Assembly: GCF_022763305.1 (NCBI RefSeq)
Contig: NZ_JALEGT010000093.1
Location: 461 to 64,460, forward strand
DNA from: Marivita sp.
GTDB lineage: Bacteria > Pseudomonadota > Alphaproteobacteria > Rhodobacterales > Rhodobacteraceae
Direction: 5' to 3'
Length of the DNA: 64,000 nt
Positions 2 to 52,871 of the stretch are shown here, piece after piece. Each line of letters begins with the position of its first letter. Position 1 is the stretch's first letter. The translations under genes and the position numbers were made by a program. The notes beneath the pieces are model-generated. The model saw only the letters and a program-made list of their open reading frames with translations. It searched no databases and was not told where the DNA came from.

Positions 2-550
2 GATCTGCGCGAATTTCTCGCGCAAGACACCGGAATTGCGCCGATCCTGCGCGCGATCTCGGAGCTCTTTCAACCCGGAGAGGGATGCCGGGCGATCCTG
101 CCCCATGCCACGACGAACGCCGTTTTCCACGTCGATGTTCAGGAAAACTCGGTTGCCGCCCGCCGTGCCGACCACCCGGTCCTGCAGCAGATTGCCATCA
201 CTCACGGGCACGGACCGCTGTGGTCGGCACTGGCTGTAGCGTATGAACTGGATGCCCTGCTGACGGGAGAGCCCCCGCAGCTTTGGCGGCTTGCCAACGG
301 CGCTGTTGTCGAAGCCGCACGTGGCCTTTACGGGATCACGGCTAAAGTCGAGGACGGCCGCGTCACCGCCTTTACCCGCATCACGCCGACCGATCACCTG
401 ACGGCCCATGGCGGCGCGCTGGACCAGTCACTGGCCAGCCTGCCCGCCGAGCGTGCGCGGGGGTTGGCGCCGCTGCTCTTGTCAATTCTCGATCCGTGTT
501 ATCCAGTTTCCGTGGAACCTGCCCAACAAAGGGAGCCGGAGCATGCATGA
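2..550 (+). CDS. hupK: HupK-like hydrogenase maturation protein, C-terminal part (5' end outside window)
   Basis: Frame 2 is open from the window edge to TGA 548-550 with strong GC3 bias. It contains no Met, so it is absent from the ORF track. Translation ...[22 protein letters not shown]...[15 protein letters not shown] carries a large-subunit-like DPC motif near the C-terminus. It lies directly upstream of hypAB, as I recall for Rhodobacter/Rhizobium hup clusters, and overlaps the hypA start by 8 nt. Confidence 0.5.
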
Positions 551-884
551 GATGTCGCTTTGCGAAGGCATGCGCAGCGTGATCGAAGATCAGGCCCGCC
601 AGCACAATGTCGCGCGCATCACCCGCGTGCGGGTCGAGATCGGGCGCTTTGCCGGGGTCGAGACCAAGGCGCTGCACTTTGCCTTCGACGTGGTGATGCG
701 CGGGTCGGTGGCCGAGGGTGCCGAACTGGTCACGCTCGACCTGCCCGGACGGGCGCTGTGCTACGACTGTATGAAAGAGGTGGAGATCGAAGCCCGCCTC
801 GACCCCTGCCCCTTATGTGGCGGCGGAAAACTGATGCCGCAGGGCGGCGACGAAATGCGGATCAAGGATTTGGAGGTGGCGTAA
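543..884 (+). CDS. hypA: hydrogenase nickel incorporation protein HypA
   Basis: Internal ATG of track ORF 408..884. N-terminus MHEMSLCEG is the classic HypA start, and CYDC...CPLCGG forms the zinc-ribbon cysteines. 113 aa. Confidence 0.93.
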
Positions 885-1720
885 TGTGTAATGTTTGCGG
901 ATGTTCGGACGGCGAAACCAAGGTGCATGGGCACAGCCATGATCACCACCATCACGACCATGACCACGGTCACCACCACCATCATCACCACGATCACCAC
1001 CATTACGGCCACGGCCCTGCGGGCACCGAAGTGCCGGGCATGTCGCAGGAGCGGCTGATCGAGATCGAGACCGACATCCTGTCGAAGAACGACCGCTATG
1101 CGCAGGCCAACCGGGCGGTTCTGACCCAGCGCGGCATTCTGGCGCTGAACCTCGTTTCCTCGCCCGGATCGGGCAAGACGACGCTCCTTTGCAAGACCAT
1201 CGAAGCCCTTGGGGATCAGCCGCTGGCGGTGATCGAAGGGGACCAGCAGACCCAGAACGACGCCGACCGTATCCGCGCGACCGGTGCGCGGGCGGTGCAG
1301 GTGAACACCGGCAAGGGCTGCCATCTGGATGGTCACATGGTGGGCCACGCGATGGAGCATCTGGCGCTGGACCCCGGGTCGATCCTCTTTATCGAGAACG
1401 TCGGCAATCTGGTCTGCCCCGCCGCCTTTGATTTGGGCGAAGATGCCAAGGTGGCGATCCTGTCGGTGACCGAAGGCGAAGACAAGCCGTTGAAATACCC
1501 AGATATGTTCACCGCTGCTCGGCTGGCGATCCTGAACAAGATCGACCTTGCGCCCCATTGCGATGTGGACCTCGACCTCTACGAGGCCAACCTGCGGCGG
1601 GTGAATCCGGGGATCGAGATCCTGCACCTGTCGGCACGCACCGGCGAAGGCATGGCGGAGTGGCTGGCGTGGCTGCGGACCCATCTGGCCGAGAAAGCGA
1701 TCCAAGAGGCGGCGCAATGA
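884..1720 (+). CDS. hypB: hydrogenase nickel incorporation GTPase HypB with His-rich N-terminal stretch
   Basis: TAATG overlap with hypA. N-terminus is [10 protein letters not shown], followed by [31 protein letters not shown]-loop is GSPGSGKTT and the C-terminal [10 protein letters not shown] motif is present. Confidence 0.95.
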
Positions 1721-3198: not shown

Positions 3199-3201
3199 GC
3201 C

Positions 3202-6879: not shown

Positions 6880-7037
6880 CCCGCGCCAAGGGTGCGACAT
6901 TGTATACCTCCGCATATGCAGATTTCTTGCTCAGACGGCGAAAATAACGCCTGCAAAAGAGGCAGCGCGAAGATAATTCAATTTTCATTTACTTAACCAC
7001 TTCCGGTTTCACGACGCGCTGCTGTTGGGTCGGCGGC

Positions 7038-7892
7038 ATGAACATGTCAGCCAACATCCCCGCTCCCACCGCGCAGCAGGCCAAACCTGCAGGCGTTCAT
7101 TCCCGACCGGCGTTGGAACTGCAGGACGCGTCCGTTGTCTTTGGCAGCGGAGACACCGCAGTCACGGCTCTGTCGCCCACAAACCTCAAGATGGAGCGCG
7201 GGGATTTCCTTGCGCTTGTCGGCCCATCAGGCTGCGGAAAGTCCACGATCCTCAAGCTCGTCAGCAACCTGATCCAGCCCAGCTCGGGTCTTGTGCTGGT
7301 GGGCGGGAAAGAGGCGAAGGCCAAGGAACTGCGCATCGGCATGGCGTTCCAGAACCCGACGATGCTGCCCTGGCTCACCATCGAGCAGAACATCCTGATG
7401 CCGCTCAAGATCGTGGCACCGTTCAAGCACACCTATCGGCAGGACAAGAAGGGCGCGTTCCGCGACCGCGTGCATGCGCTGCTGGCACAGGTGGGGTTGA
7501 AGGATTTCGCCAACCATTATCCCTGGCAGTTGTCGGGCGGCATGTTGCAGCGGTCCAATCTCTGCCGGGCGCTGGTGCATGAACCGGACCTGCTGCTGCT
7601 GGATGAACCCTTTGGCGCGCTCGACCAGTTCACCCGCGAAGAGCTGTGGCAGATCATGCAGACGCTGTATCTGGATCGCAAACCCACGGTTCTTCTGGTC
7701 ACGCATGACCTGCGCGAAGCGGGATACCTGGCCAACCGCATCTGCGTGATGAGCGCACGTCCGGGGCGGATCATCTCGGACGAGCCGGTGAACATCCCGC
7801 AACCGCGCGACATCGGCATGATCTATAGCCCCGAATTCGTCGAAATGACCCAAGGCCTGCGTGAGTTGATCGCGCAAGTCCGCAGCGCGTGA
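7038..7892 (+). CDS. ABC transporter ATP-binding protein (NitT/TauT family)
   Basis: Walker [10 protein letters not shown], signature LSGGMLQRSNL, Walker B LLLLDEPFGALD. Confidence 0.92.
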   Translation: MNMSANIPAPTAQQAKPAGVHSRPALELQDASVVFGSGDTAVTALSPTNLKMERGDFLALVGPSGCGKSTILKLVSNLIQPSSGLVLVGGKEAKAKELRIGMAFQNPTMLPWLTIEQNILMPLKIVAPFKHTYRQDKKGAFRDRVHALLAQVGLKDFANHYPWQLSGGMLQRSNLCRALVHEPDLLLLDEPFGALDQFTREELWQIMQTLYLDRKPTVLLVTHDLREAGYLANRICVMSARPGRIISDEPVNIPQPRDIGMIYSPEFVEMTQGLRELIAQVRSA

Positions 7893-7902
7893 GGATTTTG
7901 CA

Positions 7903-8676
7903 ATGACCGACTCTCAACGCATCCGAGTGCTGTCCAGCTCGCTGATCATCGGGTTCTTCCTGACATGGGAGGTGCTCTGCATAATCCTGAACGTGTCTGA
8001 CCTGATCCTGCCGCGCCCGTCCGAGATTTTGGTGACGATGTGGACGCGGTTCCCGGTGCTCTGGCCGCATATCCTGCAGACGCTCTATTCCACTTTGTTC
8101 GGCTTTTCGCTGGGCGTGATCATCGGGGTCGCTTTGGGCGTGATCGTGGGAACCTCGAAGATCGCCTATGCCGTGGCGTACCCCTTGCTGGTCGGATTTT
8201 CGTCGATCCCCAAGGTCGCGGTGGTGCCTATTTTCGTTTTGTGGTTCGGGTCGGGCACCACGCCCGCCGTGCTGACGGCGATGGTGATCTGCGTGTTCCC
8301 GATCGTCGTCAACATCGCCACGGGCCTTGCCACGACCGAGCCAGAACTTGAAGACGTGCTCAAGACGCTGGGGGCCTCAAAGACAGAGATCCTGTGGAAT
8401 GTCGGTCTGCCCCGCGCGATGCCCTATTTCTTTGCCTCGCTCAAAGTGGCGATCACGCTCTCCTTTGTGGGCGCGGTCCTGTCGGAGACCGTGGCGTCCA
8501 ACATGGGCATCGGCAACGTGATGATGACCGCCTCCTCAAACTTCCAGGTCTCGCTGGTCTTTGCCGGGCTGATCATCCTCGCCCTGATGGGGGTCGCGCT
8601 TTACGCGGTCTTCTCGTTCCTCGAACGCCGGGTCACCGGCTGGGCCACACGCGGCAACGACATCGCCGTCACCTGA
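7903..8676 (+). CDS. ABC transporter permease (NitT/TauT family)
   Basis: Multi-TM hydrophobic protein of 257 aa, placed between the ATPase and the binding protein. Confidence 0.88.
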   Translation: MTDSQRIRVLSSSLIIGFFLTWEVLCIILNVSDLILPRPSEILVTMWTRFPVLWPHILQTLYSTLFGFSLGVIIGVALGVIVGTSKIAYAVAYPLLVGFSSIPKVAVVPIFVLWFGSGTTPAVLTAMVICVFPIVVNIATGLATTEPELEDVLKTLGASKTEILWNVGLPRAMPYFFASLKVAITLSFVGAVLSETVASNMGIGNVMMTASSNFQVSLVFAGLIILALMGVALYAVFSFLERRVTGWATRGNDIAVT

Positions 8677-8715
8677 TCCGAAACTTCCCTCTCTCCAATC
8701 GAAAAGGACGACCTC

Positions 8716-9741
8716 ATGAAACACTCTCTGTTCGGTGCCGCCCTCGCCCTTCTGGCCGGAGCTGCCCCCGCCTTTGCCGAAATGACCGACATCCGCTTCA
8801 CACTCGGCTGGAAAACCCAAGGGTCGGACGCGCCCTTCCTGCTCGCACTGCACAAAGGCTATTTCGAGGAAGAAGGCCTGAACGTCACCATCGACCAGGG
8901 CGAAGGATCGGCCGCAACCGTGACGCGCATCATGGGCGGGGCCTATGACGCAGGTTTCGGGGACATCAACGCCATCATCCAGAACGCGGCCGCCCGTCCG
9001 GGCGAAGCGCCGGTCATGGTCTACCAGCTTTGGAACCGCCCGCCCTTTGCCATCGTGACGCCCAAGACCGCCGGGATCGAAACACCCGCCGATTTCGAAG
9101 GCAAGACGCTGGGCGGCGCGCAAGGCACGCCGACCACCCGCCTTTTCCCGGTCTTCGCCGAGCTGAACGGCATCAACCTTGATGCGGTCAAGCAAGAGAA
9201 CATGGCGCCGAACCTGCAGGAGCCGATGATGATCCGCGGCGACATCGACGGCGCGTTTGTCTTCACCTCGACCAGCTGGTTCAACCTGATCGCCAACCGT
9301 CAGGACCCGGCAAACGACTACAACTGGTTCAACTTCGAAGACTACGGGATGGACCTCTATTCCAACGGTCTGATGGTATCGCGCCAGTTGCTGGCCGAGA
9401 ACCCCGAAGCGGTGGCAGGTCTCGTCCGCGCGGTGAACAAGGCCACCATGGAAGTCGCGGCCAATCAGGACAGCTCGGTCGAGGCGATCCTTGCCTTCGA
9501 CAACCTGGTCGACCCGGAACTGGAACGCGCCCGTCTGGAATTCGCGCTGACCAACCTGATGAACGCGCCCGAAGTGACCGAGATCGGCATGGGCGATCTG
9601 GTGGACGAGCGTCTGACCCGTTCCATCGAGATCGTCGCCAAGGGCTATGGCCTCGACCGCCTGCCCGAAGCGTCGGAAATCTTCAACCGCTCTTTCCTGC
9701 CGCCGATGGAAACGCGCACCTTCGAAGTGACGCTGAACTGA
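8716..9741 (+). CDS. ABC transporter substrate-binding protein (NMT1/SsuA-like)
   Basis: Signal peptide MKHSLFGAALALLAGAAPAFA. Periplasmic-binding-protein-like sequence adjacent to the permease. Confidence 0.88.
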   Translation: MKHSLFGAALALLAGAAPAFAEMTDIRFTLGWKTQGSDAPFLLALHKGYFEEEGLNVTIDQGEGSAATVTRIMGGAYDAGFGDINAIIQNAAARPGEAPVMVYQLWNRPPFAIVTPKTAGIETPADFEGKTLGGAQGTPTTRLFPVFAELNGINLDAVKQENMAPNLQEPMMIRGDIDGAFVFTSTSWFNLIANRQDPANDYNWFNFEDYGMDLYSNGLMVSRQLLAENPEAVAGLVRAVNKATMEVAANQDSSVEAILAFDNLVDPELERARLEFALTNLMNAPEVTEIGMGDLVDERLTRSIEIVAKGYGLDRLPEASEIFNRSFLPPMETRTFEVTLN

Positions 9742-41878: not shown

Positions 41879-42823
41879 TTAGCCTTGCAATTGTTCCCAC
41901 ATCTCGAGGTCACGTTCCGCCGTCCAGACGCGCGGATGCACAATCCCGCGCGCCTCGTCATAGGCGCGGGCGACGTTGAACGGCAGGCAGTGTTCGTAGA
42001 TCGCGTAATCCTTGAACTTGGGATCGCAGGCATCCCGTACCGCATCCCACGCATCCTTGAGGCTTCCGCCCTTCGCGGCAATCGGTTTGACCGCGTTATA
42101 GGTGCTGTCCACAAAGTCCCGCGTGTTCGCGAGGGCGGCATCCACCATATCGCGCCCCACAAGAGCGTCACCGCGACCGGGCGCGATGCTCTGCGGATCA
42201 TAGGCTTTGACCGCATCCAGTGTCGCGCCCCACTCCTCGAAATGGCCGTCGCCACAATAGCAGGCCGAGTGGTACTCCACGATGTCCCCCGTGAACATGG
42301 TCTGACTGTCAGGCACGCAGATCACGCTGTCCCCGGCGGTATGCGCGCGCCCGATCTGTTTGATCTCGACCTTCCGCTTGCCCAGATAGACCGTCATGCT
42401 GTCGCTGAAGGTGGTGGTGGGCCATGTCAGGCCGGGGATGCTTTCGTGGCCTTCGAAAAGGCGCGGAAAGCGCTGGAATTCGCTGTCCCAGTCTTCTTGC
42501 CCGCGTTCGACCACCATGCCGCGCGCGGCGTCGGACATGATGATCTGGTCGGCGTTGAAGGCGCTCGCCCCGAGCACCCGCACCGCGTGGTAATGGGTCA
42601 GCACCACGTGGGAAATCGGCTTGTCGGTCACGCTGCGCACACAGTCGATGACCTTCTGCGCCAGACGGGGTGTGGCCTGCGCCTCGACGATCATCACACT
42701 GTCATCGCCGATGATCACGCCGGAATTCGGGTCTCCCTCGGCGGTGAAGGCATAGAGGCCATCACCAATCTCGGTGAAGGAAATCTGCTTTTCTGCGGTG
42801 TCACCCTGCGATGCAAAGGCCAT
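41879..42823 (-). CDS. MBL-fold protein with degenerate HxHxDH motif
   Basis: VVLTHYHAVRVLG sits where HxHxDH is expected. Later GRAHTAGD and FTGDIV are present. 314 aa. Confidence 0.8.
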   Translation of the reverse strand: MAFASQGDTAEKQISFTEIGDGLYAFTAEGDPNSGVIIGDDSVMIVEAQATPRLAQKVIDCVRSVTDKPISHVVLTHYHAVRVLGASAFNADQIIMSDAARGMVVERGQEDWDSEFQRFPRLFEGHESIPGLTWPTTTFSDSMTVYLGKRKVEIKQIGRAHTAGDSVICVPDSQTMFTGDIVEYHSACYCGDGHFEEWGATLDAVKAYDPQSIAPGRGDALVGRDMVDAALANTRDFVDSTYNAVKPIAAKGGSLKDAWDAVRDACDPKFKDYAIYEHCLPFNVARAYDEARGIVHPRVWTAERDLEMWEQLQG

Positions 42824-42933: not shown

Positions 42934-43443
42934 ATGACGCCCGACACCTTTCACCTGTCGTCTTTCCTGCCCTACCGCCTTGCCGTGCTGTCCGAACGGG
43001 TCAGTCGGCGGCTGTCGGTGGAATACGGGCGGACGCACGGTCTGGTCGTCGCGGAATGGCGTGTGCTGGTGCATCTGCTGCGGTGCGGGGCTGTGTCGGT
43101 CCGGGACATCCACAATTGCGTCAATCTGGAAAAACCGCGCGTCAGCCGGGCCGTGTCACGGCTCGAAGCGGAGGGGCTGGTGCAGAAAACGCAAGGTGAA
43201 GGCGATGGGCGACTGGTCGCCATCTCGCTGACCGAAGCGGGACGCGACGTGCTGACGGACATCATCCCTGCTGCTACGCGGATCGAACGCAGCATGATGG
43301 AGGCCGTCAGCCCGGACGATCTGGCAACGTTCTTCCGCGTGATGGAGCGGATGCACGCGGTGCTGGACGATGATCCCGAGGCCAAACCGCGCACGGAGAT
43401 GGACCGACGCCCCGGGATCACCGCGTTGGCGCAACAGGGCTAG
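42934..43443 (+). CDS. MarR family transcriptional regulator (divergent from the hmgA unit)
   Basis: Internal ATG (MTPDTFHLSSFLPYRLAVL). Winged helix NLEKPRVSRAVSRLEAEGLVQKTQGEGDGRLVAISLT. Confidence 0.88.
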   Translation: MTPDTFHLSSFLPYRLAVLSERVSRRLSVEYGRTHGLVVAEWRVLVHLLRCGAVSVRDIHNCVNLEKPRVSRAVSRLEAEGLVQKTQGEGDGRLVAISLTEAGRDVLTDIIPAATRIERSMMEAVSPDDLATFFRVMERMHAVLDDDPEAKPRTEMDRRPGITALAQQG

Positions 43444-43637
43444 GTTTTTGCAATGCGCGCCTTCGGGCGCCTGGCCCTTCGCGACCCGGGTCCGCCTCGC
43501 CATGCGAGGATCAGGGCCGAAACGATCGCGGCGACGCCGCCCAGCAAGGGCAGCGTAGAGGCGATCATGACCACCTCGTGATGGGCCGCTGCCGGGGTGG
43601 CGACAAGCGCCAGCAAGACCGCAAGCGCTCTCCTCAT
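43440..43637 (-). CDS. small membrane protein: predicted signal peptide, then HHE, one TM helix and a basic tail
   Basis: Internal ATG in ATGA overlap with the upstream ORF. MRRALAVLLALVATPAAA|HHEVVMIASTLPLLGGVAAIVSALILAWRGGPGSRRARRPKARIAKT. High GC3. No family recognised. Confidence 0.55.
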   Translation of the reverse strand: MRRALAVLLALVATPAAAHHEVVMIASTLPLLGGVAAIVSALILAWRGGPGSRRARRPKARIAKT

Positions 43638-44062
43638 GTCACATCCCGCGCGGCGGGGTGGAGTTTGAGGAAGGCGCGCAGGTCGGTCACCTGTTTGGCG
43701 CGCAATGAGACATAGACAAAGCCCATATTCGTCCGCTCCGTCACCATGTCGCCGGGATACGGCAGATAGGACAGTTCCTGTGATCCGAAGGAGGGCGAGG
43801 CCGTGCCGACCTGCCATTCCGTGGTCAGTTGCACATCCACCAGTTTCATCGAGGGTCCGCCATCGGGGGCCGCGATTTCCAAAGGCACACCCGCCAGCCG
43901 AAGGTAAGACATCTTGTCCTTTGCCGCGACAAACCCGTCGATGAACTGCGCGGTGAGCACCTGCAGCTCTTCCGCCTTGTCGGCGTCAGGCATATGGCTG
44001 TGCAGGTGGTCGCCATGGCTGTGGTTGTGGCCGATATGGCCGTTCACGATATCATGTGGCAT
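43634..44062 (-). CDS. uncharacterised His-rich protein (MPHDIVNGHIGHNHSHGDHLHSH...)
   Basis: ATG 44062 has AAGGAAAG upstream and overlaps the hydrolase stop by 11 nt. The alternative ATG at 44092 has no RBS. Nine His occur in the first 23 residues, followed by about 115 aa with no motif I recognise. Confidence 0.65.
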   Translation of the reverse strand: MPHDIVNGHIGHNHSHGDHLHSHMPDADKAEELQVLTAQFIDGFVAAKDKMSYLRLAGVPLEIAAPDGGPSMKLVDVQLTTEWQVGTASPSFGSQELSYLPYPGDMVTERTNMGFVYVSLRAKQVTDLRAFLKLHPAARDVT

Positions 44063-45296
44063 TGGACCACCGCTTTCCTTCGAACGCGCCATGCGGGATC
44101 GTCACGGGCTTATCGATATGGCGCTTGTGTTTGCCAAGATTGCCCGAGGCGACAAGGCTGCCCAGCACATCGACGATCACGCGGGTGCCCATGAGTGCGG
44201 TGATTTCGGACTGGTCATAGGGCGGCGCCACTTCGACCAGCTCCATGCCGCAGATGCCTTCGGCTGCGACCTTGGAGGCCAAGGCCAGTGCCTCGCGCGG
44301 CAGGAAGCCACCGGGTTCGGGCCAGCCTGTGCCGGGCACAAACCCGCAGTCGATGCTGTCGATGTCGAAGGACATGTAAACCATGTCGACCCCATCCCAC
44401 GCCATCTCGAGCGCCATCTCGGCGGTCTTGTCGACACCCATCTTTTCCATGTCACCCATGGTGATGATGTTGGTTTCGCGTTCGCGCGCGACCTTCACCG
44501 CCTCGCGGGGGACCTGCCAGCCGCCGATGCCCACCTGCACCAGGTTCTTGGCAGGCACGTTGGGCAGGTTCGTGGAATGGAACCACGGGGTTGTGTGCAT
44601 CCGCTCGTCCAGATCCTTCTCCTGAATGTCGGCGTGGCGGTCGAAATGCACGATGCCGATCTTCTTGGACGTACATTCCGCAATCCCGCGCACACAGGGA
44701 AAGCCGATGGAATGGTCGCCGCCGATCATGATCGGCAAACTGCCCGAGGAAAACACGTGGCTGACGGCGCGGCTGATCTGGTCAAAGGTCTTTTCGATAT
44801 TGGCGGGGATCGTGAACACGTCGCCCGCATCACAGAGCGTCATCTGTTCACGCAGATCGACGGCCATTTCGTAATTGTAGGGCGTGTAGAGCGCACTGAT
44901 CTTGCGCACACCCTGCGGGCCGAACCGAGTGCCTGCGCGATAGGTCGTGCCGCCGTCAAAGGGAATGCCCAGAACGGTGGCGTCATAGTCCCCCACCTCG
45001 GTCACGTCCTCGGCATAGGGGGCCTTGAGAAAGGTGTTGATCCCGGCGTAATGCGGCAGCTCCCCACGGGCGAAGGTGGGGATGGACTTGTCCTCGATGC
45101 TGTCGGCCCCGGTCAGGCCCATGCGCAGCGCCCATTTGCGCTCCTGCTCCCAGCCGCTGCCGGGGATGCCCGCCTCGTCATGCATCGCCTTCCAGCCGCG
45201 CAGCTTGGTCAGGTCGGGATGGTGATGGCGCGCCTCGGTGCGGGGGTGATCCGCAGGGTGGTGCGACCGGGTCCGGTCACGCGGGCTGTGGAACAT
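44052..45296 (-). CDS. extended arginase/agmatinase-family ureohydrolase (candidate guanidine hydrolase, GdmH-like)
   Basis: Metal-site motifs GGDHSIG, FDRHADI, SFDIDSID and ELVEVAPPYD. There is an N-terminal extension of about 70 aa beginning MFHSPRDRTRSHHPADHPRTEARHHHPD. GC3 stays high through the extension, so the upstream ATG is preferred; it overlaps the ATPase end by 20 nt. Confidence 0.85.
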   Translation of the reverse strand: MFHSPRDRTRSHHPADHPRTEARHHHPDLTKLRGWKAMHDEAGIPGSGWEQERKWALRMGLTGADSIEDKSIPTFARGELPHYAGINTFLKAPYAEDVTEVGDYDATVLGIPFDGGTTYRAGTRFGPQGVRKISALYTPYNYEMAVDLREQMTLCDAGDVFTIPANIEKTFDQISRAVSHVFSSGSLPIMIGGDHSIGFPCVRGIAECTSKKIGIVHFDRHADIQEKDLDERMHTTPWFHSTNLPNVPAKNLVQVGIGGWQVPREAVKVARERETNIITMGDMEKMGVDKTAEMALEMAWDGVDMVYMSFDIDSIDCGFVPGTGWPEPGGFLPREALALASKVAAEGICGMELVEVAPPYDQSEITALMGTRVIVDVLGSLVASGNLGKHKRHIDKPVTIPHGAFEGKRWSNAT

Positions 45297-46044
45297 GGGA
45301 AGCCTCCTTCAGGGTCTGGTACGGGATGCCGCCATTGCGGGCATCGAAATCGTAGGTGATGGTCGCGCCATAGCGGGACGGGTCGTGCGGGTCCCAACGG
45401 GGCTTATCGAAGACGAGAACGCGGTCACCCAGCTTGAACGCTTCTTCGAGGTCATGGGTGACCATGAACACGGTCATGCCGGTTTCGGCGCGCAGGTCCT
45501 GCAGGAAATCATGCATGGACACGCGCGTTCCGGGATCGAGCGCGCCGAAGGGTTCATCGAGCAGAAGGACACGCGGTTTCGCGGCCAGTGCCTGAGCGAT
45601 GGCAAGGCGCTGCTGCATGCCGCCCGACAGCGTGGCCGGGTAGTTGTCGGCGACGTGATCCAGGCCGATACGCGCGAGCGTCCGGTCGGCGCGCTCGCGG
45701 GCGGCCCTTGATTTTTCTCCGAAAAATCGGCCCCACCCGCTGCGGAAGCTTTCACCAGCCACGATGTTGTCCCGCACCGTCATATGCGGAAAGACCGAAT
45801 AGCGCTGAAACACGATGCCCCGGTCCAAACCCGGTTCGCGCGCAGGCTCTGCCCCGTCGATGCGGATCTCGCCACGCGACGGACGCTCCTGAGCCAGCAG
45901 AAGCCGCAGGAAGGTGGACTTGCCACAGCCGGACGCTCCGACGATGGAGATGAACTCTCCCTCGTCCACGTCCAAATTCACGCGTTCGATGATCGGGCGG
46001 TTGTCATAGGTTTGGAACAGGTCGCGGACGGTGACAAAGCTCAT
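45277..46044 (-). CDS. ABC transporter ATP-binding protein (NitT/TauT family)
   Basis: Internal ATG (MSFVTVRDLF) in ATGA overlap with the permease. Motifs [35 protein letters not shown]. Confidence 0.9.
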   Translation of the reverse strand: MSFVTVRDLFQTYDNRPIIERVNLDVDEGEFISIVGASGCGKSTFLRLLLAQERPSRGEIRIDGAEPAREPGLDRGIVFQRYSVFPHMTVRDNIVAGESFRSGWGRFFGEKSRAARERADRTLARIGLDHVADNYPATLSGGMQQRLAIAQALAAKPRVLLLDEPFGALDPGTRVSMHDFLQDLRAETGMTVFMVTHDLEEAFKLGDRVLVFDKPRWDPHDPSRYGATITYDFDARNGGIPYQTLKEASHVPQPA

Positions 46045-46853
46045 AGCCCCTCCTCCGCCCACGGGTAGACACGGCGCGAGGCCCAGCGCAGAAGCCAGTC
46101 CATCGCGAAGGCAAGCAGGGTGATCCAGATCACGTAGGTCAGGATGACGTCCATCGCGAGATAGCGGCGCACCAGGAAAATGCGGTAGCCGAGGCCCAGA
46201 TCCGCGGCGATGGCCTCGGCCGCGATCAGGAAAAGCCATGCGGGGCCAAGCGACAGGCGCACCGCCTGTATGAGGCGCGGCATGACCTGCGGCAGCGCCA
46301 CGCGGATCGCAATGACCCAGCTTGACGCGCCCAGTGTCTGCGCCTTGACCAGAAGTTCCTGCGGAATTTCGAGCGTGCGCTGACTCAGATCGCGGATGAT
46401 GAAGGGCAAGGTGCCGACGACGATCAGCACCACCTTGGAGAGCTCACCCAGCCCGAACACGATGAAGAGGATCGGCAACAGCGCCAGTGGTGGGATCATC
46501 GACAGCACGGCCACGAATTGCGACAGCAGGTTGCGCACAAGCGGGAACAGACCAATAAGCAGGCCGAAGACCAGCCCGACGCTGGCCGAGATGGCGATGC
46601 CCAGCCACAGCCGTTGCAGGCTGGCCCATGTGTCATGCCAAAAGAGGATGCGCCCCGTGCGTCTGTCGCCTTCGGTGAGCAGGCGCATCATCGTATCGCC
46701 AATCGTTCCAGGCGCGGGCAACAGCTTGTCCGACGGGTTTTCCGTGAGCCGGATATCCGACCCCATCGCATAGGCGATCATCACCGCTGCAAAGGGCAGC
46801 AGCACGAGAAACAGCGCGAGCGCGGGGCCGGGTTTTATGTTGATCAGACGCAT
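46041..46853 (-). CDS. ABC transporter permease (NitT/TauT family)
   Basis: Multi-TM, 270 aa, between the binding protein and the ATPase. Confidence 0.88.
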   Translation of the reverse strand: MRLINIKPGPALALFLVLLPFAAVMIAYAMGSDIRLTENPSDKLLPAPGTIGDTMMRLLTEGDRRTGRILFWHDTWASLQRLWLGIAISASVGLVFGLLIGLFPLVRNLLSQFVAVLSMIPPLALLPILFIVFGLGELSKVVLIVVGTLPFIIRDLSQRTLEIPQELLVKAQTLGASSWVIAIRVALPQVMPRLIQAVRLSLGPAWLFLIAAEAIAADLGLGYRIFLVRRYLAMDVILTYVIWITLLAFAMDWLLRWASRRVYPWAEEGL

Positions 46854-46892
46854 CGGGAAGATGCCGCCACGCGCACGCGTGACGGCGGGTCC

Positions 46893-47939
46893 TTAGAGGC
46901 TGCCGTCGGCAGCCATCTGCATGTAGGTCGTGTCGAAGCGGAACATGACGTTGTTCGCATCACCCGTGATCGAGCCGTCCGGATAGGCCACACCGACGAA
47001 ATCCGCCGAGGGTGCACCTTCACCCAGAATGCCCTTGTCGAACAGGAATTCGGCAACATTGACCATCGTCTGCGGCAGCTCTGCGCTTTCGGTGAAGGCC
47101 ACCGCGGCGGCGGGATCGTAGAACATCTCGGTCGAGGCAAGCTGGGCCTTGTATCCGGTCAGATCGGTGCCCGAGGCGTCGGCCATCGCGGTCAGGACGT
47201 CTTCGTCGCCTGCCGCCATCAGGCTCATCACCTCGTACCACGCCCCCACCAGCGCCTTGCCGAAATCCGGGTTCGCGTCGAGCGTTTCGGTGTTCACCAC
47301 CATCAGGTCGATGATTTCGCCGGGGATGTCGGAGCTGTCGAAAATGCTGTTGGCCCCCGGTGTTTCGAGGATCGAGGACACCAGCGGGTTCCATGTGACC
47401 ACCGCTTCGACATCGTCAGTGGCAAAGGCCGCGATCATGTCGGCGTCCGACGTGTTGATCACCCCACCCAAATCCGCCTCGGACAGGCCCACACTGTCGA
47501 GCCCCCGCGCCAGCAGATAGTGCGAAACCGACAGTTCCACGAGGTTCACCGGCTTGCCCGCCAGACTCGTCAGATCGCCCTCGCCCTTGAGGATCACCGC
47601 GTCATTGCCGTTGGAATAGTCACCCACGATCAACGCCGTGGTGTCGACACCGCCACCCGAGGGGATCGAAAGCGTGTCCATGTTGGTGGCGGACACACCA
47701 TCGAATTGACCGGCGGTGTATTGGTTGATCGACTCGATATAATCGTTGATCTGCACGATCTCGACATCGATGCCGTATTTTTCGGCCCATTTGTCCATGA
47801 TGCCGCTGTCTTCGAGATAGCCCCAGGGCATCCAGCCGACATAGATCGACCAGGCGACACGGAATTCGGTCTTCTCTTGCGCGACAGCGCCGGTCGCAAG
47901 GCAAAGAGCAAGGGCGGTGGTGGTTACAAGCTTTTTCAT
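46893..47939 (-). CDS. ABC transporter substrate-binding protein (NitT/TauT type; first gene after the riboswitch)
   Basis: Signal peptide MKKLVTTTALALCLATGAVA. Periplasmic-binding-protein sequence. Confidence 0.88.
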   Translation of the reverse strand: MKKLVTTTALALCLATGAVAQEKTEFRVAWSIYVGWMPWGYLEDSGIMDKWAEKYGIDVEIVQINDYIESINQYTAGQFDGVSATNMDTLSIPSGGGVDTTALIVGDYSNGNDAVILKGEGDLTSLAGKPVNLVELSVSHYLLARGLDSVGLSEADLGGVINTSDADMIAAFATDDVEAVVTWNPLVSSILETPGANSIFDSSDIPGEIIDLMVVNTETLDANPDFGKALVGAWYEVMSLMAAGDEDVLTAMADASGTDLTGYKAQLASTEMFYDPAAAVAFTESAELPQTMVNVAEFLFDKGILGEGAPSADFVGVAYPDGSITGDANNVMFRFDTTYMQMAADGSL

Positions 47940-48019
47940 CTTCGGTCCCCATCAGGTTTTCACAATGGAATGACCGCGTGGAGGGCATCATCGGAGCGCG
48001 GGTCAAACCAGCGCAGTAG

Positions 48020-48112
48020 CCTCCCGGGATTTTGCCCCGCCGTGTACTGCCCGGGATTGACCGGACAGCGATATCTCTCGGACCAGACCGTGTGTGCGAC
48101 GCGGAACCCTAG
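48020..48112 (-). promoter_or_regulatory. guanidine-I (ykkC/yxkD) riboswitch aptamer
   Basis: The minus strand reads CTAGGGTTCCGCGTCGCACACACGGTCTGGTCCGAGAGATATCGCTGTCCGGTCAATCCCGGGCAGTACACGGCGGGGCAAAATCCCGGGAGG. All four conserved ykkC blocks are present in order and spacing: CUAGGGUUCCG, GGUCCGAGAG, ACACGGCGGG, CCCGGGAG. It ends about 80 nt upstream of the 47939 start codon. Confidence 0.88.
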
Positions 48113-48228
48113 ACATCCTGCACCTTCACCCAAGCGAACTGTCGCTTGCCGGGCAAGTTCGGCCTCGGTCCAGTCTTCACGTTGGACGACGCTGCCCATT
48201 CCCTACGCCGGCACAGCGGCGAATGGTC

Positions 48229-48256
48229 AAAAAACGGGCACACGGGAAAGTGCCTG
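48229..48256 (-). terminator. possible intrinsic terminator after the response-regulator gene
   Basis: The minus strand reads GGCAC-TTTCCCGT-GTGCC-CG-TTTTTT. The stem is short (5 bp), so this is tentative. Confidence 0.4.
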
Positions 48257-48302: not shown

Positions 48303-48905
48303 TCAGATCAGACCAGATTGCCGGGCGCGGGCGACGGCGCCTTTCGTATCAAGCGCGTCGAATTTTCGGCAGAGGGTCTTGACGACGAATGCGACCGTCA
48401 CCTCTTTCAAACCCAACGCCGCAGCGATCTCGGGCACGGATTGCCCCTGATCGAGGCCTGTCAGAACCTGCACTTCGCGCGTCGTCAGATCGGCGACGCG
48501 GGATTGCGGCGCAGGCTCGGCGTCGCTTTCGAGCATGTTGACGACCTGCCCCTCGGCCATGGCACGGATGGCCTGAACATAGCTTTTCGCCGGCAGCTTC
48601 TTGGGCAGAAACCCCGCCGCGCCAAGGCGTAACGCCTCGTCCACGATATGCTGGGCGAGATTGCCGGACATGAGCGCGACCGGCGCTCCCCTGCCCTCGG
48701 TCAGGGCGCGGCGCAGACCGTCGAGCCCGTCCATACCGGGCATGTGGTAATCCAGCAGGATCAGGTCGAACGGCGGATGCTCTGCGACCTGGCGCAGGAC
48801 ACTGTCCAGATCTTCGGCCAATGTCACACCGATCTCTTGACGCGACAGCATCGCGTCGAAGAGTTCGCGCAACATCTCCTGATCATCGGCAATCAATACC
48901 CGCAT
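48303..48905 (-). CDS. LuxR/FixJ-family response regulator
   Basis: Receiver MRVLIADDQ...LLDYHMPGMDG and C-terminal LuxR HTH LTTREVQVLTGLDQGQSVPEIAAALGLKEVTV. Confidence 0.92.
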   Translation of the reverse strand: MRVLIADDQEMLRELFDAMLSRQEIGVTLAEDLDSVLRQVAEHPPFDLILLDYHMPGMDGLDGLRRALTEGRGAPVALMSGNLAQHIVDEALRLGAAGFLPKKLPAKSYVQAIRAMAEGQVVNMLESDAEPAPQSRVADLTTREVQVLTGLDQGQSVPEIAAALGLKEVTVAFVVKTLCRKFDALDTKGAVARARQSGLI

Positions 48906-48908
48906 GGT

Positions 48909-51900
48909 TCAGCCAGTCTGTTCCGCTGCGGCCAGCAAGGCCAATTCCGCCTGAAGCACCAGTGATCGTCGGTCAATGGGCTTTGGCAGGACGGCGGAAA
49001 AATGCACACCGGTCCGACCGGCTTCACCGGCAAGGGCGGTCACAAGAAGCATCGGCAATCCGGGCACGAGACGTCGCGCCTCATCGGCCAGTTGCGCACC
49101 GGTCATGTGCGGCATGTCGAAATCCGTGACCACGAGGTCCCAGCTGCCGGGATCATCCCTGAGTGCGTCGATCACGTCCTCGGGATTGGTTGTGGACGCG
49201 ACTTCGGCCCCGGCCGCTTCGAGATAGGCGGTGATCACATCCAGCACTTCGGGATGGTCATCAACCACGATGATCATCCGACCATCGAGACGGCCCGTTG
49301 CGGCATCAGTGGAAACAGGAACCGACGGGAGCGACTGAACGGCGTCCACCGGCCAGAACACGTCGAACCGTGCTCCTTCGCCGGGGGCAGTCGTCAGACG
49401 CAGCGCACCGCCATTGTCCTCGATCACCGACGACACGACGGCCAGTCCCAGACCGGTGCCCAGATCACCTTTCGTGGTGAAGTAGGGCATGAGAATCTGC
49501 GAGGCGACGTCCTCGGACATGCCCGGCCCTGTGTCTTCGACGGTCAGGCAGGCGTATCGCCGCGCCGGATCAACGCGCCCGACAGACATCGGCCCCATGT
49601 CTCCAACCTGCTGCGGCGCGGCCAGTCGGATCGTGACCGTTCCCGGCGCACCGGCAAGCGCATCGCGCGCATTGATCGCGAGATTGAGCAAAAGCTGCAG
49701 AACATCGGTCGGGTCGGCCAAGGCCTCGACCGCGGTTTCGGGCAGGGTCAGGGACAGGCGGGTCGGCGCGCGCAGGCTGGACCGCACAAGCTCGGCCGCC
49801 TCCTTGACCGGCTGCCGCAGGTCGAGATTGACACGGGCCGACTTTCGCGCTCCGAGCGTGAGCAGACGTTTCACCAATCCGGCCGCCTGATCCGACGCCG
49901 CCAGAATGCGGGACGCGCCCGAGGCGGTCGATGCGTCCTTGTCGGCGGTTTCCATGATCAGCGACGCCCCGCCGGAAATGATCGCCAGCAGATTGTTGAA
50001 ATCATGGGCAAGCCCCGCCGCCATCTGGCCGATCATCTCGCGGCGTTGTGCCAGTTGCAGTTCATTGAGAAGGCGTTCGCGTTCGGCCCGTTCGCGGCGG
50101 CGGACGGAGATGTCGCGCGTGATGCAGAGCAGGCCACCATCAGCGTTCACCGTGAGAGAGACATCCTGTTCGACGGGGCTGCCGTCGCGCGCAAGGCCGA
50201 CTGTCTCGCCTGACCAGCCGCCATCCCGCATCAACGCCGGGAAGACGTGCTTTTCGATCCATGCAACCTCTTCGGGCCCATAGAGCATGGCATAGGACTG
50301 GCCAAGAACCTCCTCTTCACGCGTGTATCCGAACATCTCCAGATGCGCTCGGTTCATATAGACAAAGCGCCCTTCGGCGTCGGTGATGGCGATCCCGTCA
50401 AGGCTTGCTTCCATCGCAGCGGCCCGATCGGCCAAGGCGCGTTGCTCGGCAAGCTTGAGGTCCGTGATGTCGACGCGCAATTCAACACGGCCGCCTGCGG
50501 GCATGGCCTTTTCGAAAACGCGCAGCCACGTCCCGTCGGGCAGCATCTCTTCGAATTCCCGGTCCGGCTCGGAATGCTGCGCCAGTCTTTCGGCCAGCCA
50601 CTCTTCCTCGCGGCCAATCGCTTCGGGATACTGGCCCACCTGCACGCCGTAGCGCATGATGCTTTCGAACTCGGCACCGATGACGATGGCCGGTTCGGAC
50701 AGGGCATGGATTTGGCGGAACCGGCTGTTGCAGATCACCAGCCGATCCTCTGCATCATACAGCACGAAACCATCCTGCAGCGCCTCGACGGCCTGCTCGA
50801 GATTGGCGCGCGCCAGGGCCGCCTCACCGGCCGCGCGACGCAGCGATTCCGCCTGTGCGCGTTGTTCGGTGATGTCGACCTCGACGGCAAGAAAGCCCGC
50901 AAGACCACCTTCGTCATTGTGCATCGGCTGGATGTCGATCGAGAGCCAGTATTCGATGCCGTTACGTGCCTTGTTCAGCAATTCGACCTGCACCGCCTGA
51001 CCGCGGTCAAGCGCGTCGCGCATCTTGCCCACGGTTTCGGGATCCGTCTTGTCGGACTGGAGAAGCTTGCCCGGGTTCTGCCCCCTGACCTCGTCAAGCG
51101 TCCAGCCGGTTGTCTGCTCGAACGCGTCGTTGACCCATTCGATACGACGTTTTGCATCCGTGATGACGACGAGGTTGGTGGTGCGGCGGGCAATTTCCGA
51201 CAGCCGTTCAAGTTCCGTCGCTTTCTTGCGTGCCTCCGAGATGTCCCGCAGCGCGATCAGATAGCCCTGATCGCCGATCGCAGACCCCGTCAACTGCCAC
51301 CATCCGGACAAAGGCGGCAGGAGTGTCATCTCGAAGGTGTGTCGGACGACCGGTGCTCCGGCGTCCAGTTCGGCCATCTTGGCACGCAACGTCCGCACCA
51401 TCTCGGGGTTGAGCTTTTCTTCGGGCAGGCGGTTGAAGAAGGCATCAAAAACCGCATCGGGGATTTCGATCGTGCCCGAGTGCCAGGACGTAAACCGTCC
51501 TTCCCGGTCCAACTCGACGATGAGATCCGGCATTGCGGACAAGACCGCCTCGAGCCGGGTGCGCTGCGACAGGGTCTCGGCATGGGCGGACACCAGCCGC
51601 TCTTCGGCGTCGCGACGTGCCAGAACCGACATGATGACCTTGGCCACCGAGCGGATCAGATACACCTCGCCGGGCAGGAAATTGCGCAACTCGCGGACCG
51701 CGTCAAAACCCACGAACCCGCGAAACGCCCCGTTTTCCATCATCGGCACGGTCAGGAGCGATTGGATGTCCTGCTCCAGCAGCCCGTCCTTGTCCGGCGC
51801 ATCATCCGGCAAGGCCGCGACATCCGGGATCAGGACGTCTTCACCCGACGCGAATTGCGTGCGCCAATGGTCAATCGTCTCGGCGGGCATGCCCTGTAGA

Positions 51901-52871
51901 AGGTCGCGGACAGGGGTGATGCCCGGCGCGCACCATTCGTGCGTGTTGTCGATAAAGGCGCCGTCCGAGCGAAGACGGAACACATAGACGCGGTCCATAC
52001 CGGTCACTTCGCCCATACGCGCCAGGGCGGTGTCGATCGCAGCATCGGTGTCCTGCAGCGACGCGCTCAGCAAGGCATCCAGAATGCCGATGACGTGCCC
52101 CTGCATTTCGGTCAGGCGCGCAAAGGCATTCTGCACCGTTTCAAGCGGCGCATCCAGAACCGCGTCGGACCGTTCCAGCGGCTTGCCTTCGACAAGCGCC
52201 AGCAGCAAGGCATTGCGACGTGCTTCGCGCAGCGCCAGCAACGCCTGCGTTGCCAGTCGGGAGACATGTTCAAGGCTGCGCAGATCGCCCGCAGTATATC
52301 GCTTGGCCAGCTTGCAGCCGATGAAAAAGGCGCCGGCGGTCTCGTCCGGCATTTCAAGCGGCACGATCATGCCGGACGCGGGCACATTGCTCCCGCCCGG
52401 CCAAGGCAGACCCTCGATCAGACCCGTCAATTTCGCAATGCGTCTTGGCCGCGTGATCAAGGCCGCCGGAAGCGGCAATCGCTGACCCTGATGCGTCTTG
52501 TCGGCGCAGACCGACACTACCGTATGATCCCCTTCGGCCTGAACGAAAAAGCAGTCGCGTCCGCCGATTTCGCGCTTGAGCACGTCAAGCAGGGCCTGCA
52601 TGGCTTCATCGGCGCCGGATTTGCCGGTCAACGCCTTCAACGCTTCGGACAGGATCAACCGCTCCTTGAGCGCCTTGGCTTCACGGAGACGGATCGTTTC
52701 GGTGTCTGCAAGCGCCGCGCGCACGGCCTCCGTTTCGGCAAGAAGCCGACGGTTTATCTCCTGGATTTCACGGTTTTTCGCTTCGAGTTGCGCCTCGGCA
52801 TCCAGCCGCGCCTGTTTTTCACGCTCATACAGGCTCCGTGAGATCATCAGGTCTCGAGTATCGCCATTCAT
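48909..52871 (-). CDS. cytoplasmic hybrid sensor histidine kinase (coiled coil, GAF, multiple PAS, HisKA, HATPase, receiver)
   Basis: 1320 aa with no obvious TM segment. H-box GLAHDFNNLL, G-boxes DTGPGM and GTGLGLAVV, C-terminal receiver IIVVDDHPE...VTDFDMPHMTG. Several PAS-like repeats have (I/V)TER/QR ends. Confidence 0.9.
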   Translation of the reverse strand: MNGDTRDLMISRSLYEREKQARLDAEAQLEAKNREIQEINRRLLAETEAVRAALADTETIRLREAKALKERLILSEALKALTGKSGADEAMQALLDVLKREIGGRDCFFVQAEGDHTVVSVCADKTHQGQRLPLPAALITRPRRIAKLTGLIEGLPWPGGSNVPASGMIVPLEMPDETAGAFFIGCKLAKRYTAGDLRSLEHVSRLATQALLALREARRNALLLALVEGKPLERSDAVLDAPLETVQNAFARLTEMQGHVIGILDALLSASLQDTDAAIDTALARMGEVTGMDRVYVFRLRSDGAFIDNTHEWCAPGITPVRDLLQGMPAETIDHWRTQFASGEDVLIPDVAALPDDAPDKDGLLEQDIQSLLTVPMMENGAFRGFVGFDAVRELRNFLPGEVYLIRSVAKVIMSVLARRDAEERLVSAHAETLSQRTRLEAVLSAMPDLIVELDREGRFTSWHSGTIEIPDAVFDAFFNRLPEEKLNPEMVRTLRAKMAELDAGAPVVRHTFEMTLLPPLSGWWQLTGSAIGDQGYLIALRDISEARKKATELERLSEIARRTTNLVVITDAKRRIEWVNDAFEQTTGWTLDEVRGQNPGKLLQSDKTDPETVGKMRDALDRGQAVQVELLNKARNGIEYWLSIDIQPMHNDEGGLAGFLAVEVDITEQRAQAESLRRAAGEAALARANLEQAVEALQDGFVLYDAEDRLVICNSRFRQIHALSEPAIVIGAEFESIMRYGVQVGQYPEAIGREEEWLAERLAQHSEPDREFEEMLPDGTWLRVFEKAMPAGGRVELRVDITDLKLAEQRALADRAAAMEASLDGIAITDAEGRFVYMNRAHLEMFGYTREEEVLGQSYAMLYGPEEVAWIEKHVFPALMRDGGWSGETVGLARDGSPVEQDVSLTVNADGGLLCITRDISVRRRERAERERLLNELQLAQRREMIGQMAAGLAHDFNNLLAIISGGASLIMETADKDASTASGASRILAASDQAAGLVKRLLTLGARKSARVNLDLRQPVKEAAELVRSSLRAPTRLSLTLPETAVEALADPTDVLQLLLNLAINARDALAGAPGTVTIRLAAPQQVGDMGPMSVGRVDPARRYACLTVEDTGPGMSEDVASQILMPYFTTKGDLGTGLGLAVVSSVIEDNGGALRLTTAPGEGARFDVFWPVDAVQSLPSVPVSTDAATGRLDGRMIIVVDDHPEVLDVITAYLEAAGAEVASTTNPEDVIDALRDDPGSWDLVVTDFDMPHMTGAQLADEARRLVPGLPMLLVTALAGEAGRTGVHFSAVLPKPIDRRSLVLQAELALLAAAEQTG

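Follow-up and report, generated by a model that had tools for sequence, protein, structure and literature searches.

The window considered here (the whole stretch of 64,000 nucleotides of Marivita sp., contig NZ_JALEGT010000093.1, with a GC content of 63%) carries on its minus strand a guanidine-I (ykkC) riboswitch aptamer, followed by six co-directional open reading frames (ORFs; Table 1). These encode the periplasmic binding protein (SBP), the permease, and the ATPase of an ABC importer, an orthologue of the guanidine hydrolase GdmH, and two unnamed small proteins, referred to below as p142 and p65. An earlier reading of the sequence alone (the original prediction) had described this set of genes, and its account of their junctions was exact. 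Indeed, the SBP and permease genes are separated by a 39-nt gap, and all further junctions consist of overlaps, namely of 4 nt between the permease and ATPase genes (ATGA, read directly in the sequence), 20 nt between the ATPase and hydrolase genes, 11 nt between the hydrolase and p142 genes, and 4 nt between the p142 and p65 genes (again ATGA). In the six ORFs, the GC content of the third codon positions (0.76 – 0.82) was much higher than that of the second codon positions (0.40 – 0.59), which fits coding sequence. The encoded proteins are 95 – 98% identical to their counterparts in M. cryptomonadis and M. lacus.

The presence of the aptamer, originally described as a textbook ykkC element and proposed for comparison with Rfam family RF00442, was confirmed by a full-length match (model positions 1 – 107; cmscan) of 78.9 bits, above the gathering score of 63. 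This was the sole Rfam family in the whole window. The aptamer extends 11 nt past position 48112, the end coordinate originally given for the whole feature, and is followed after 79 nt by the start codon of the SBP gene. Based on its sequence, it is a true guanidine-I riboswitch, for which guanidine binding and switching are predicted. A terminator-like hairpin with a T6 run follows the upstream regulator gene, so that the riboswitch appears to start its own, separate unit. A scan of the leader retrieved no intrinsic terminator between the aptamer and the first gene, nor did the leader contain a clear sequestering or alternative helix (minimum free energy z-score of +1.0, no stable alternative fold). 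RF00442 matches were also found 5' of homologous operons in other genomes and contigs, distant lineages included (loci L012, L040, L045, L059, L081, L083, L086, L087, L091, and L171), and the exact aptamer core motif occurred in 50 out of 85 loci.

Table 1. Features of the guanidine operon and its leader (positions in the window)
Feature	Position	Strand	Basis
Terminator-like hairpin with T6 run	48237..48254	-	Consensus scan only; 3' of the upstream LuxR-type regulator gene
Guanidine-I (ykkC) riboswitch aptamer	48019..48123	-	RF00442, 78.9 bits, E 2.3e-12
SBP, periplasmic binding protein of NitT/TauT-type ABC importer, 348 aa	46893..47939	-	TIGR03427 and Pfam NMT1_2
ABC permease, 270 aa	46041..46853	-	PF00528, E 4e-21
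ABC ATPase, 255 aa	45277..46044	-	PF00005, E 8e-35
GdmH orthologue, 414 aa, arginase fold	44052..45296	-	PF00491, E 5.5e-75
GdmH N-terminal extension, residues 1-35, 7 His	45192..45296	-	Conserved motif R-x-H-H-P-D-L-x-K-L-x-G-W-K-A
p142, 142-aa cytoplasmic protein, candidate GdmH-specific accessory/Ni-delivery protein	43634..44062	-	Conserved unnamed family
p142 His-rich N-terminal tract, MPHDIVNGHIGHNHSHGDHLHSHM, predicted disordered	43991..44062	-	pLDDT <50, residues 4-24
p65, 65 aa: signal peptide (1-18), predicted transmembrane span (~22-46), basic tail	43440..43637	-	Conserved architecture

The hydrolase matched both guanidinases of known structure at about 1e-160, namely Synechocystis Sll1077/GdmH (PDB 7esr/7oi1; E 5.6e-165) and the guanidinase of Nitrospira inopinata (PDB 9fek; E 2.4e-162). 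The next-best PDB matches were proclavaminate amidinohydrolase (PAH; 2e-48), guanidinobutyrase (GbuA; 1e-46), and guanidinopropionase (GpuA; 1e-45). Guanidinases are called by the residues Thr105, His222, and Trp313, in N. inopinata numbering (Palatinszky et al., PMC11410670). These correspond to T118 (GGTTYR), H234 (ERMHTT), and W325 (GTGWPEP) of the window enzyme, one offset fitting all three positions once a 1-residue indel and the 2-residue tag of 9fek are taken into account. An identity as agmatinase was rejected, as the scores with the NCBIfam agmatinase models were below cut-off (207.6 versus 302, and 170.1 versus 174.3). The guanidinase-level PDB matches, the conserved signature, and these low agmatinase scores together indicate that the hydrolase is, at the sequence level, an orthologue of the GdmH guanidinases, in agreement with the GdmH-like enzyme originally proposed. 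Synechocystis GdmH needs Ni and is activated by the HypA/HypB-like proteins GhaA and GhaB (PMC12704784; PMC12186494). Similarly, the related metformin and dimethylguanidine hydrolases MefH/DmgH need HypA/HypB and adjoin HupE (PMC11399263). By analogy, the window enzyme is presumably Ni-dependent too. Its alignment to the two solved guanidinases begins at residue 36/37, the N-terminal extension thus falling outside. Of the His-rich tail that had been attributed to the enzyme, one part is conserved, since the motif R-x-H-H-P-(D/N)-(L/F)-x-x-(L/M)-x(2,3)-G-W-K-A is common to the orthologues of Rhodobacterales, Hyphomicrobiales, Sinorhizobium fredii, and a planctomycete-like contig, but the rest of the stretch is lineage-specific. 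This HHPD...GWKA tail may plausibly, although conjecturally, serve as a docking or hand-off site.

The pairing of this enzyme with import was borne out by the SBP, which scored 527.4 bits against TIGR03427 (ABC_peri_uca; cut-off 333.9), a family of NitT/TauT-type binding proteins that is named 'putative urea ABC transporter' by NCBI and is associated with urea/guanidine carboxylase. With a score above the equivalog cut-off and adjoining permease and ATPase genes, the system represents a NitT/TauT-type importer, the ligand of which is probably guanidine. Its cyanobacterial counterpart GimABC helps cells to assimilate guanidine when concentrations are low (PMC12704784). A second NMT1/TauT-type ABC system (ATPase, permease, and NMT1 binding protein) was found beside a TetR regulator at 6217-9741 on the plus strand of the window; a riboswitch was not detected there.

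The 142-aa protein, which had been considered an orphan, turned out to belong to a widespread unnamed family. An exhaustive phmmer search among 1.84 billion cluster representatives retrieved 131 clusters at 50% identity, 66 of which had an E value of at most 1e-10, and a pattern scan found relatives in 495 species-representative genomes. The 1464 close homologues, mostly from Roseobacter and Paracoccaceae, were all annotated as 'hypothetical' and none contained a Pfam domain. A profile of distant members added another 1616 proteins, largely of a second subfamily found in soil Hyphomicrobiales (e.g., Pseudolabrys, Xanthobacteraceae, Fulvimarina, and Jiella), and further members occurred in uncultured marine Alphaproteobacteria, Rhodospirillales, and Myxococcota. 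No Pfam, NCBIfam, or PDB-sequence match was obtained for p142 itself, none of 53 diverse members matched any Pfam model, the family profile gave a chance-level match to PDB chains (E 0.49), and an exact-sequence look-up of the window p142 returned no record. One library sequence (P0204) can be read as a chimera of p142 and HupE.

The family shares a core of about 95 residues (FxxGF..A.D(K/P)..FLRLAG(I/V)P...L.L..V.....VG...P..G...L.Y.P.P......R....F.Y.), in which hydrophobic residues, Pro, Tyr, and a single Asp make up the near-invariant positions. AlphaFold2 (AF2) modelled this core confidently (block-mean pLDDT of about 88 – 97) as two helices on a five-stranded antiparallel sheet with a C-terminal helix, and a subfamily 2 member gave the same picture of a confident core and a disordered His tract. 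In view of the family size and the AF2 confidence, the notion of p142 as an orphan or as an artefact of ORF calling was rejected. A Foldseek search of PDB with the two models returned nothing significant (best E 0.44 and 0.2), the top matches (cystatin, HU, and COMMD) being rejected because of TM scores below 0.3. In addition, neither profile nor fold resembled those of the known Ni metallochaperone families HypA, HypB/UreG/CobW, UreE, SlyD, and CooJ. The description of p142 as His-rich holds for the window protein, with 8 out of 9 His within residues 1 – 24, but among other members the tract may be N-terminal, C-terminal (e.g., ...HAHGHHHHHPH), or missing. In subfamily 2, the N-terminal tract contains the invariant motifs M-H-x-x-H ... 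G-H-N ... Q-W-x-x-x-H (consensus QWQTPH), and H3, D4, G11, H12, N13, and H19 of the window p142 reach at least 90% conservation across the two main subfamilies.

The strongest evidence on the role of p142 comes from its neighbourhood in other genomes. Loci with at least 400 nt upstream of the p142 gene were considered informative. In the genome loci, comprising the best 80 of a profile scan (close Rhodobacterales relatives and one member of the Inquilinaceae), a GdmH orthologue was located directly upstream of p142 on the same strand in 77 out of 77 informative cases, with 84 – 98% identity to the window enzyme. The same was true for all 57 informative loci among 80 subfamily 2 loci from soil metagenomes (68 – 79% identity). 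In total, the p142-family gene was found directly 3' of a GdmH orthologue in 134/134 informative loci. The order SBP-permease-ATPase-GdmH-p142 was kept in the genome loci, usually with the same gdmH/p142 overlap, and its recurrence in 80 species genomes indicates that the operon arrangement is not due to chance. The pairing extended to further lineages (L081, L083, L084, L086, L087, L170, L171, and L175). Thus, it was present in two Hyphomicrobiales contigs with a riboswitch of 93 bits (L081 and L083), a planctomycete-like contig (L084), a metagenome-assembled genome (MAG) of the Myxococcota, and marine alphaproteobacterial contigs in which p142 bears a C-terminal His tail. On a Limimaricola plasmid, the three consecutive genes are annotated by PGAP as 'agmatinase family protein', 'hypothetical protein', and a 54-aa 'hypothetical protein', the last being the p65 equivalent. 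Conservation of both small ORFs beside such hydrolases, on which the original prediction had staked itself beforehand, was thus found, for p142 in the above 134 loci and for p65 in at least 42 loci of Rhodobacterales. Overall, the observation behind that prediction was confirmed, and its interpretation was upheld in part, withstanding all comparative tests that were made.

Several loci deviate in their additional genes. An AhpD-like/carboxymuconolactone-decarboxylase gene (about 130 aa; PF02627, E 6e-16) is located between gdmH and p142 in at least eight Rhodobacterales genomes (L004, L010 (4388-4792), L011, L014, L021, L037, L060, and L080), and a gene for a 299-aa protein with a metallo-beta-lactamase (MBL) fold occupies this place in L018. 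In L026, L029, L063, and L079, an MBL-fold gene is located 3' of p142, sometimes overlapping its stop codon, and replaces the small membrane ORF. In the Inquilinaceae MAG (L059:8411-9319), ureD (PF01774) begins in overlap with the stop codon of p142 and leads into a urease cluster, an arrangement that joins guanidine hydrolysis directly to urea hydrolysis. A different ABC system, of about 27% identity, is present in the soil loci L091, L099, L111, L113, L125, L138, L143, and L161-L164. A glutamine-synthetase-like gene lies between importer and gdmH in L091 (3289-4659; PF00120; riboswitch of 95 bits) and L164, and the other soil loci of this type show a comparable gap of about 2 kb at this position. 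Matches to RF02514 (Helicobacter 5' ureB small RNA) of 92 – 128 bits were obtained in L059 (10468-10755), L164 (9664-9949), and L168 (11166-11455). These matches lie in or beside urease clusters, the one of L168 within ureC, and are probably due to the conserved coding sequence of urease and not to a small RNA.

The last gene of the operon encodes p65, the sequence of which starts with MRRALAVLLALVATPAAA, directly followed at the predicted cleavage site by HHEVVM, one hydrophobic span, and a basic tail. The predicted mature N-terminus is hence His19-His20-Glu21. A word-based search retrieved four homologues only, one of them 100% identical (Marivita sp. MAG). Reading the DNA 3' of p142 in every locus revealed an ATGA-coupled, p65-like ORF of 50 – 73 aa in at least 42 of about 76 Rhodobacterales loci, as well as on the Limimaricola plasmid. 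These ORFs share the same build throughout, with a signal peptide, P-A-x-A before and H after the cleavage site, one hydrophobic span, and a basic tail. As this pattern fits 0.36% of background ATG ORFs, its occurrence at the same coupled position in so many loci is not due to chance. In an alignment of 40 sequences, the invariant positions were M1 and the Ala(-1) and His(+1) of the predicted signal-peptidase site only, Pro(-4) and Ala(-3) being at least 90% conserved. The claim of a small membrane protein exposing His-His applies to the window protein, with HHE at its predicted mature N-terminus, as in most members, but variants with HQE, HG, HP, and HT occur; the conserved feature is a single His at the predicted mature N-terminus, and the protein is restricted to Rhodobacterales. 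A His as first residue after the signal peptide is an experimentally supported marker of periplasmic Ni/Cu-binding proteins, and such N-terminal-His domains include those fused to HupE/UreJ-2 permeases of Rhodobacteraceae (PMC12537917).

No Pfam, NCBIfam, or PDB-sequence match was obtained for p65, and thus none to the HupE/UreJ family PF04955. Sub-threshold matches to DUF6732 (gathering score of 27 bits) were given by 6 of the 40 members (best 16.5 bits; window p65 11.8 bits). A distant relationship is possible and would say nothing on function. Matches to DUF6232 and other chance transmembrane matches were sub-threshold too and were discarded. In a marine alphaproteobacterium (L171:6421-6579), a 52-aa ORF following a C-terminally His-tailed p142 begins with MKHIIIATLAAAVSVPTVAFA/HVDGHAQM and resembles the beginning of a HupE-type protein. 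With an IS66 transposase gene nearby, the ORF may be a remnant.

The absence of Hyp-like helpers beside the enzyme, as asserted originally, was upheld. The operon of the window contained no Pfam HypA or CobW/HypB match, and a tblastn search with the window HypA and HypB found no such gene within 6 – 8 kb of gdmH in the fetched loci, save two weak HypB-like matches. One of these, in the L059 urease cluster, is read as UreG, and the other (28% identity; L161/L162/L164) lies on the opposite strand. In the window, hypA (408..884) and hypB (within ORF 560..1720) were found, as had been stated, only in a cluster about 43 kb from the operon, beside hypD and hypE. This region (408-5680, plus strand) consists of hypA, hypB with a long His stretch, a gene for a sigma-54 response regulator, hypD, and hypE. 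Nickel permease genes recur in the vicinity of gdmH and p142. S. fredii NGR234 and CCBAU 83666 possess the order SBP-permease-ATPase-GdmH-p142-HupE/UreJ (PF04955, E 6e-45); HupE was also encoded upstream of gdmH in L141 and nearby in L164. The reverse association, from gdmH loci towards p142, GhaA/GhaB, or neither, was sampled on 11 plasmid/chromid records. At least three configurations of gdmH loci exist, namely with GhaA/GhaB, with p142, and with neither. An example of the last is the Rubrobacter indicoceani plasmid NZ_CP031116.1 (L168), in which a guanidine-I riboswitch (75.7 bits) is followed by a GdmH-like gene (61% identity) and a sodium:solute symporter gene, with formamidase and urease genes nearby and neither p142 nor Hyp genes, representing a third type of guanidinase locus.

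The following mechanism is proposed for this operon. Guanidine would bind the aptamer and thereby turn on the six co-translated genes, whereupon the NitT/TauT-type importer would take up guanidine and the GdmH-type hydrolase would split it into urea and ammonium. The proteins p142 and p65 would most likely constitute a dedicated metal-supply module of GdmH. The alpha/beta core of p142 may dock on GdmH, possibly at the HHPD...GWKA extension, and its flexible His-rich tract may capture Ni2+ and hand it over to the active site, without an NTPase domain, thereby doing the job of the HypA/HypB-like GhaA and GhaB in cyanobacteria. Likewise, p65 would be exported and cleaved after Ala-x-Ala, leaving a membrane-anchored peptide with a free periplasmic N-terminal His(-His-Glu) that may help to capture or pass on Ni2+, as an analogue, not a homologue, of the HupE/UreJ encoded at the same position in Sinorhizobium. 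The contact between p142 and GdmH, the binding of Ni by both small proteins, and the cleavage of the p65 signal peptide are deduced from these features. It is an observation that two unnamed, coupled genes stand where cyanobacteria encode GhaA/GhaB; a Ni-delivery role of their products is strongly suggested but unproven. A riboswitch-run guanidine import and hydrolysis with p142 and p65 as Ni-supply module is given a probability of roughly 60%, and its importer and guanidinase part, taken alone, can be held with great confidence. The further-reaching idea that p142 represents a new NTPase-independent class of Ni metallochaperones with a movable His arm and p65 a minimal 'His1' peptide feeding Ni2+, together forming a second, independently evolved solution for dinickel loading, is tentative, with slightly less than an even chance.

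A number of observations weigh against the mechanism proposed above. An expression platform downstream of the aptamer was not found by the terminator and fold search. The alignment of the p142 core contains no conserved His or Cys and so no conserved metal ligands, some members lack the His tract altogether, and where this tract was modelled by AF2 it was disordered, so that a metal site is not visible. Furthermore, about 45% of the Rhodobacterales loci and all soil subfamily 2 loci lack p65, homology between p65 and HupE was not detectable (hhalign of the 40-sequence profile against S. fredii HupE, probability 0.2), and neither experiment nor structure ties p142 or p65 to nickel. The GdmH orthologues of Rubrobacter, Nonomuraea, and Embleya (54 – 61% identity) have neither p142 nor Hyp genes nearby, and the comammox Nitrospira guanidinase is likewise reported to lack a Hyp-type chaperone nearby (PMC11410670), which indicates that the enzyme can be matured in other ways. 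In principle, the hydrogenase hypA/hypB of the genome could mature GdmH in trans. In favour of the Ni-supply role, the p142 His tracts shift between termini, as in known Ni chaperones, and their GHN and His motifs are conserved. The pairing with GdmH in 134/134 informative loci, the lack of HypA/HypB within 6 – 8 kb, the HupE/UreJ genes near some loci, and the invariant Ala/His pair of p65 point in the same direction.

The same facts can be read differently. Given a core without metal ligands and several members without His tract, p142 might be a non-metal partner of GdmH that assists in assembly or stability, joins the hexamer as an additional subunit, or regulates it, its own His tract being incidental or buffering and Ni being inserted spontaneously or by other proteins. 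Strict adjacency and overlapping frames fit any obligate partner, and the N. inopinata guanidinase gains some Ni in E. coli without chaperones (PMC11410670). This explanation is nevertheless rather unlikely, as most subfamilies carry a His tract at one terminus or the other, the motifs GHN, HxH, and QWQxPH do not vary within a subfamily, and HupE nickel permeases are repeatedly linked. The solved guanidinase structures, moreover, have been described as hexamers of one protein (PMC11410670). Alternatively, GdmH may be matured in trans by hydrogenase HypA/HypB or by urease accessory proteins, p142 and p65 then serving Ni storage or buffering, guanidinium protection, or coupling to urease. The hypA/hypB genes in the same window, the overlap of p142 with ureD followed by urease genes in the Inquilinaceae MAG, and the need for urease, itself a user of Ni, downstream of GdmH would fit. 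However, p142 is linked to GdmH in loci without Hyp genes within 6 – 8 kb, and urease genes occur near few loci, the linkage of p142 being with gdmH and not with urease, which makes maturation in trans quite improbable.

Judged separately, p65 might have nothing to do with nickel and be a generic small membrane protein that, for example, modulates the ABC importer or acts as a membrane tether, or else an add-on of this lineage that plays no part in GdmH maturation. This would account for its restriction to Rhodobacterales, its absence from nearly half of those loci, its three invariant positions, the lack of HupE homology, and the sub-threshold likeness to DUF6732. It would leave unaccounted for that the conserved positions are precisely the signal-peptidase site and a His as first mature residue, that the ATGA coupling to p142 is constant, and that this position is filled by a genuine HupE/UreJ in S. 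fredii; a role unrelated to nickel is therefore considered unlikely. Finally, the hydrolase might be a Mn-dependent guanidino-acid or agmatine hydrolase instead of a guanidinase, given that its best NCBIfam matches are agmatinase models, all below cut-off, and that NCBIfam/PGAP use the label 'agmatinase family'. This is hardly credible in view of guanidinase matches that are more than 100 orders of magnitude better than those with GbuA, GpuA, and PAH, the conserved signature residues, and the guanidine-specific riboswitch heading the operon.

As to the surroundings of the operon, genes for a LuxR-type response regulator and a 1320-aa hybrid PAS/GAF histidine kinase are located directly upstream of the riboswitch (48303-52871, minus strand). 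The LuxR-type regulator gene is kept beside the operon only in L001-L003, with a weak partial match in L061. An MBL-fold gene downstream of the operon (41879..42823, minus strand) was considered as a member of the system, but this was not supported, as it is kept in three loci only (again L001-L003). These are two Marivita genomes and one MAG labelled Pelagibaca, with near-identical flanks. The encoded protein differs from that of the MBL-fold gene found 3' of p142 in L026, L029, L063, and L079.

GdmH is one of very few nickel-dependent enzymes with an arginase fold. HypA/HypB-type chaperones are needed for activation in the characterised examples, namely Synechocystis GdmH and the metformin/dimethylguanidine hydrolases. 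The fact that the p142 family is locked to gdmH in every p142 locus examined, across several bacterial lineages, makes it a candidate for an alternative maturation route. If true, p142 would represent a new metallochaperone fold or class, and the route would be widespread in marine roseobacters and soil Hyphomicrobiales, providing a lead on GdmH-type enzymes without a Hyp-type chaperone. It would further allow a better heterologous production of active guanidinase, which is of relevance to ethylene- or guanidine-producing cyanobacteria and to biosensing, as well as a sharper prediction of which marine and soil bacteria use guanidine as nitrogen source under scarce nickel. In addition, thousands of pairs of 'agmatinase family protein' and 'hypothetical protein' could be renamed.

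Among known systems, the operon resembles the Synechocystis cluster gdmH-ghaA-ghaB/gimABC (Sll1077-Sll1082), which has the same riboswitch class, enzyme, and NitT/TauT-type importer and shares the logic of an importer, a hydrolase, and accessory genes that immediately follow the enzyme gene. However, the accessory genes of the window are not HypA/HypB homologues, and p142 lacks both an NTPase domain and the HypA zinc-ribbon. Moreover, in the window the importer genes come first and the enzyme gene follows, the enzyme possesses the extra HHPD N-terminal extension, and a small His1 membrane peptide, predicted to be exported, is added. With the Ni chaperones UreE, HypB, SlyD, CooJ, and HypA, p142 has in common that it is small, cytoplasmic, and encoded beside its client, a Ni enzyme in their case, and that its His tract differs in length and position between members, some of which can do without it. 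The N-terminal Met/Pro-His start of p142 is reminiscent of the MHE motif of HypA. Unlike these classical chaperones, the p142 operon encodes no GTPase partner and the core lacks metal ligands and any sequence or fold match. Similarly, p65 shares with HupE/UreJ and the signal-peptide/His1 'anglerase' domains a predicted first mature His and a membrane anchor, but it has one transmembrane helix and about 45 mature residues, whereas HupE has six or more helices, and it lacks a folded periplasmic domain. The N. inopinata locus (riboswitch-APC permease-guanidinase; PDB 9FEK) has an orthologous enzyme, a guanidine-I riboswitch, and no adjoining HypA/HypB-type chaperone, but it differs by its APC permease and by the conserved candidate p142 that the window operon contains. 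The study of this guanidinase reported no dedicated protein for Ni loading and considered the mechanism unclear (PMC11410670). A literature search found no paper describing p142 or p65, and no curated family holds either. The riboswitch-importer-GdmH logic was already known; the p142/p65 accessory module was not.

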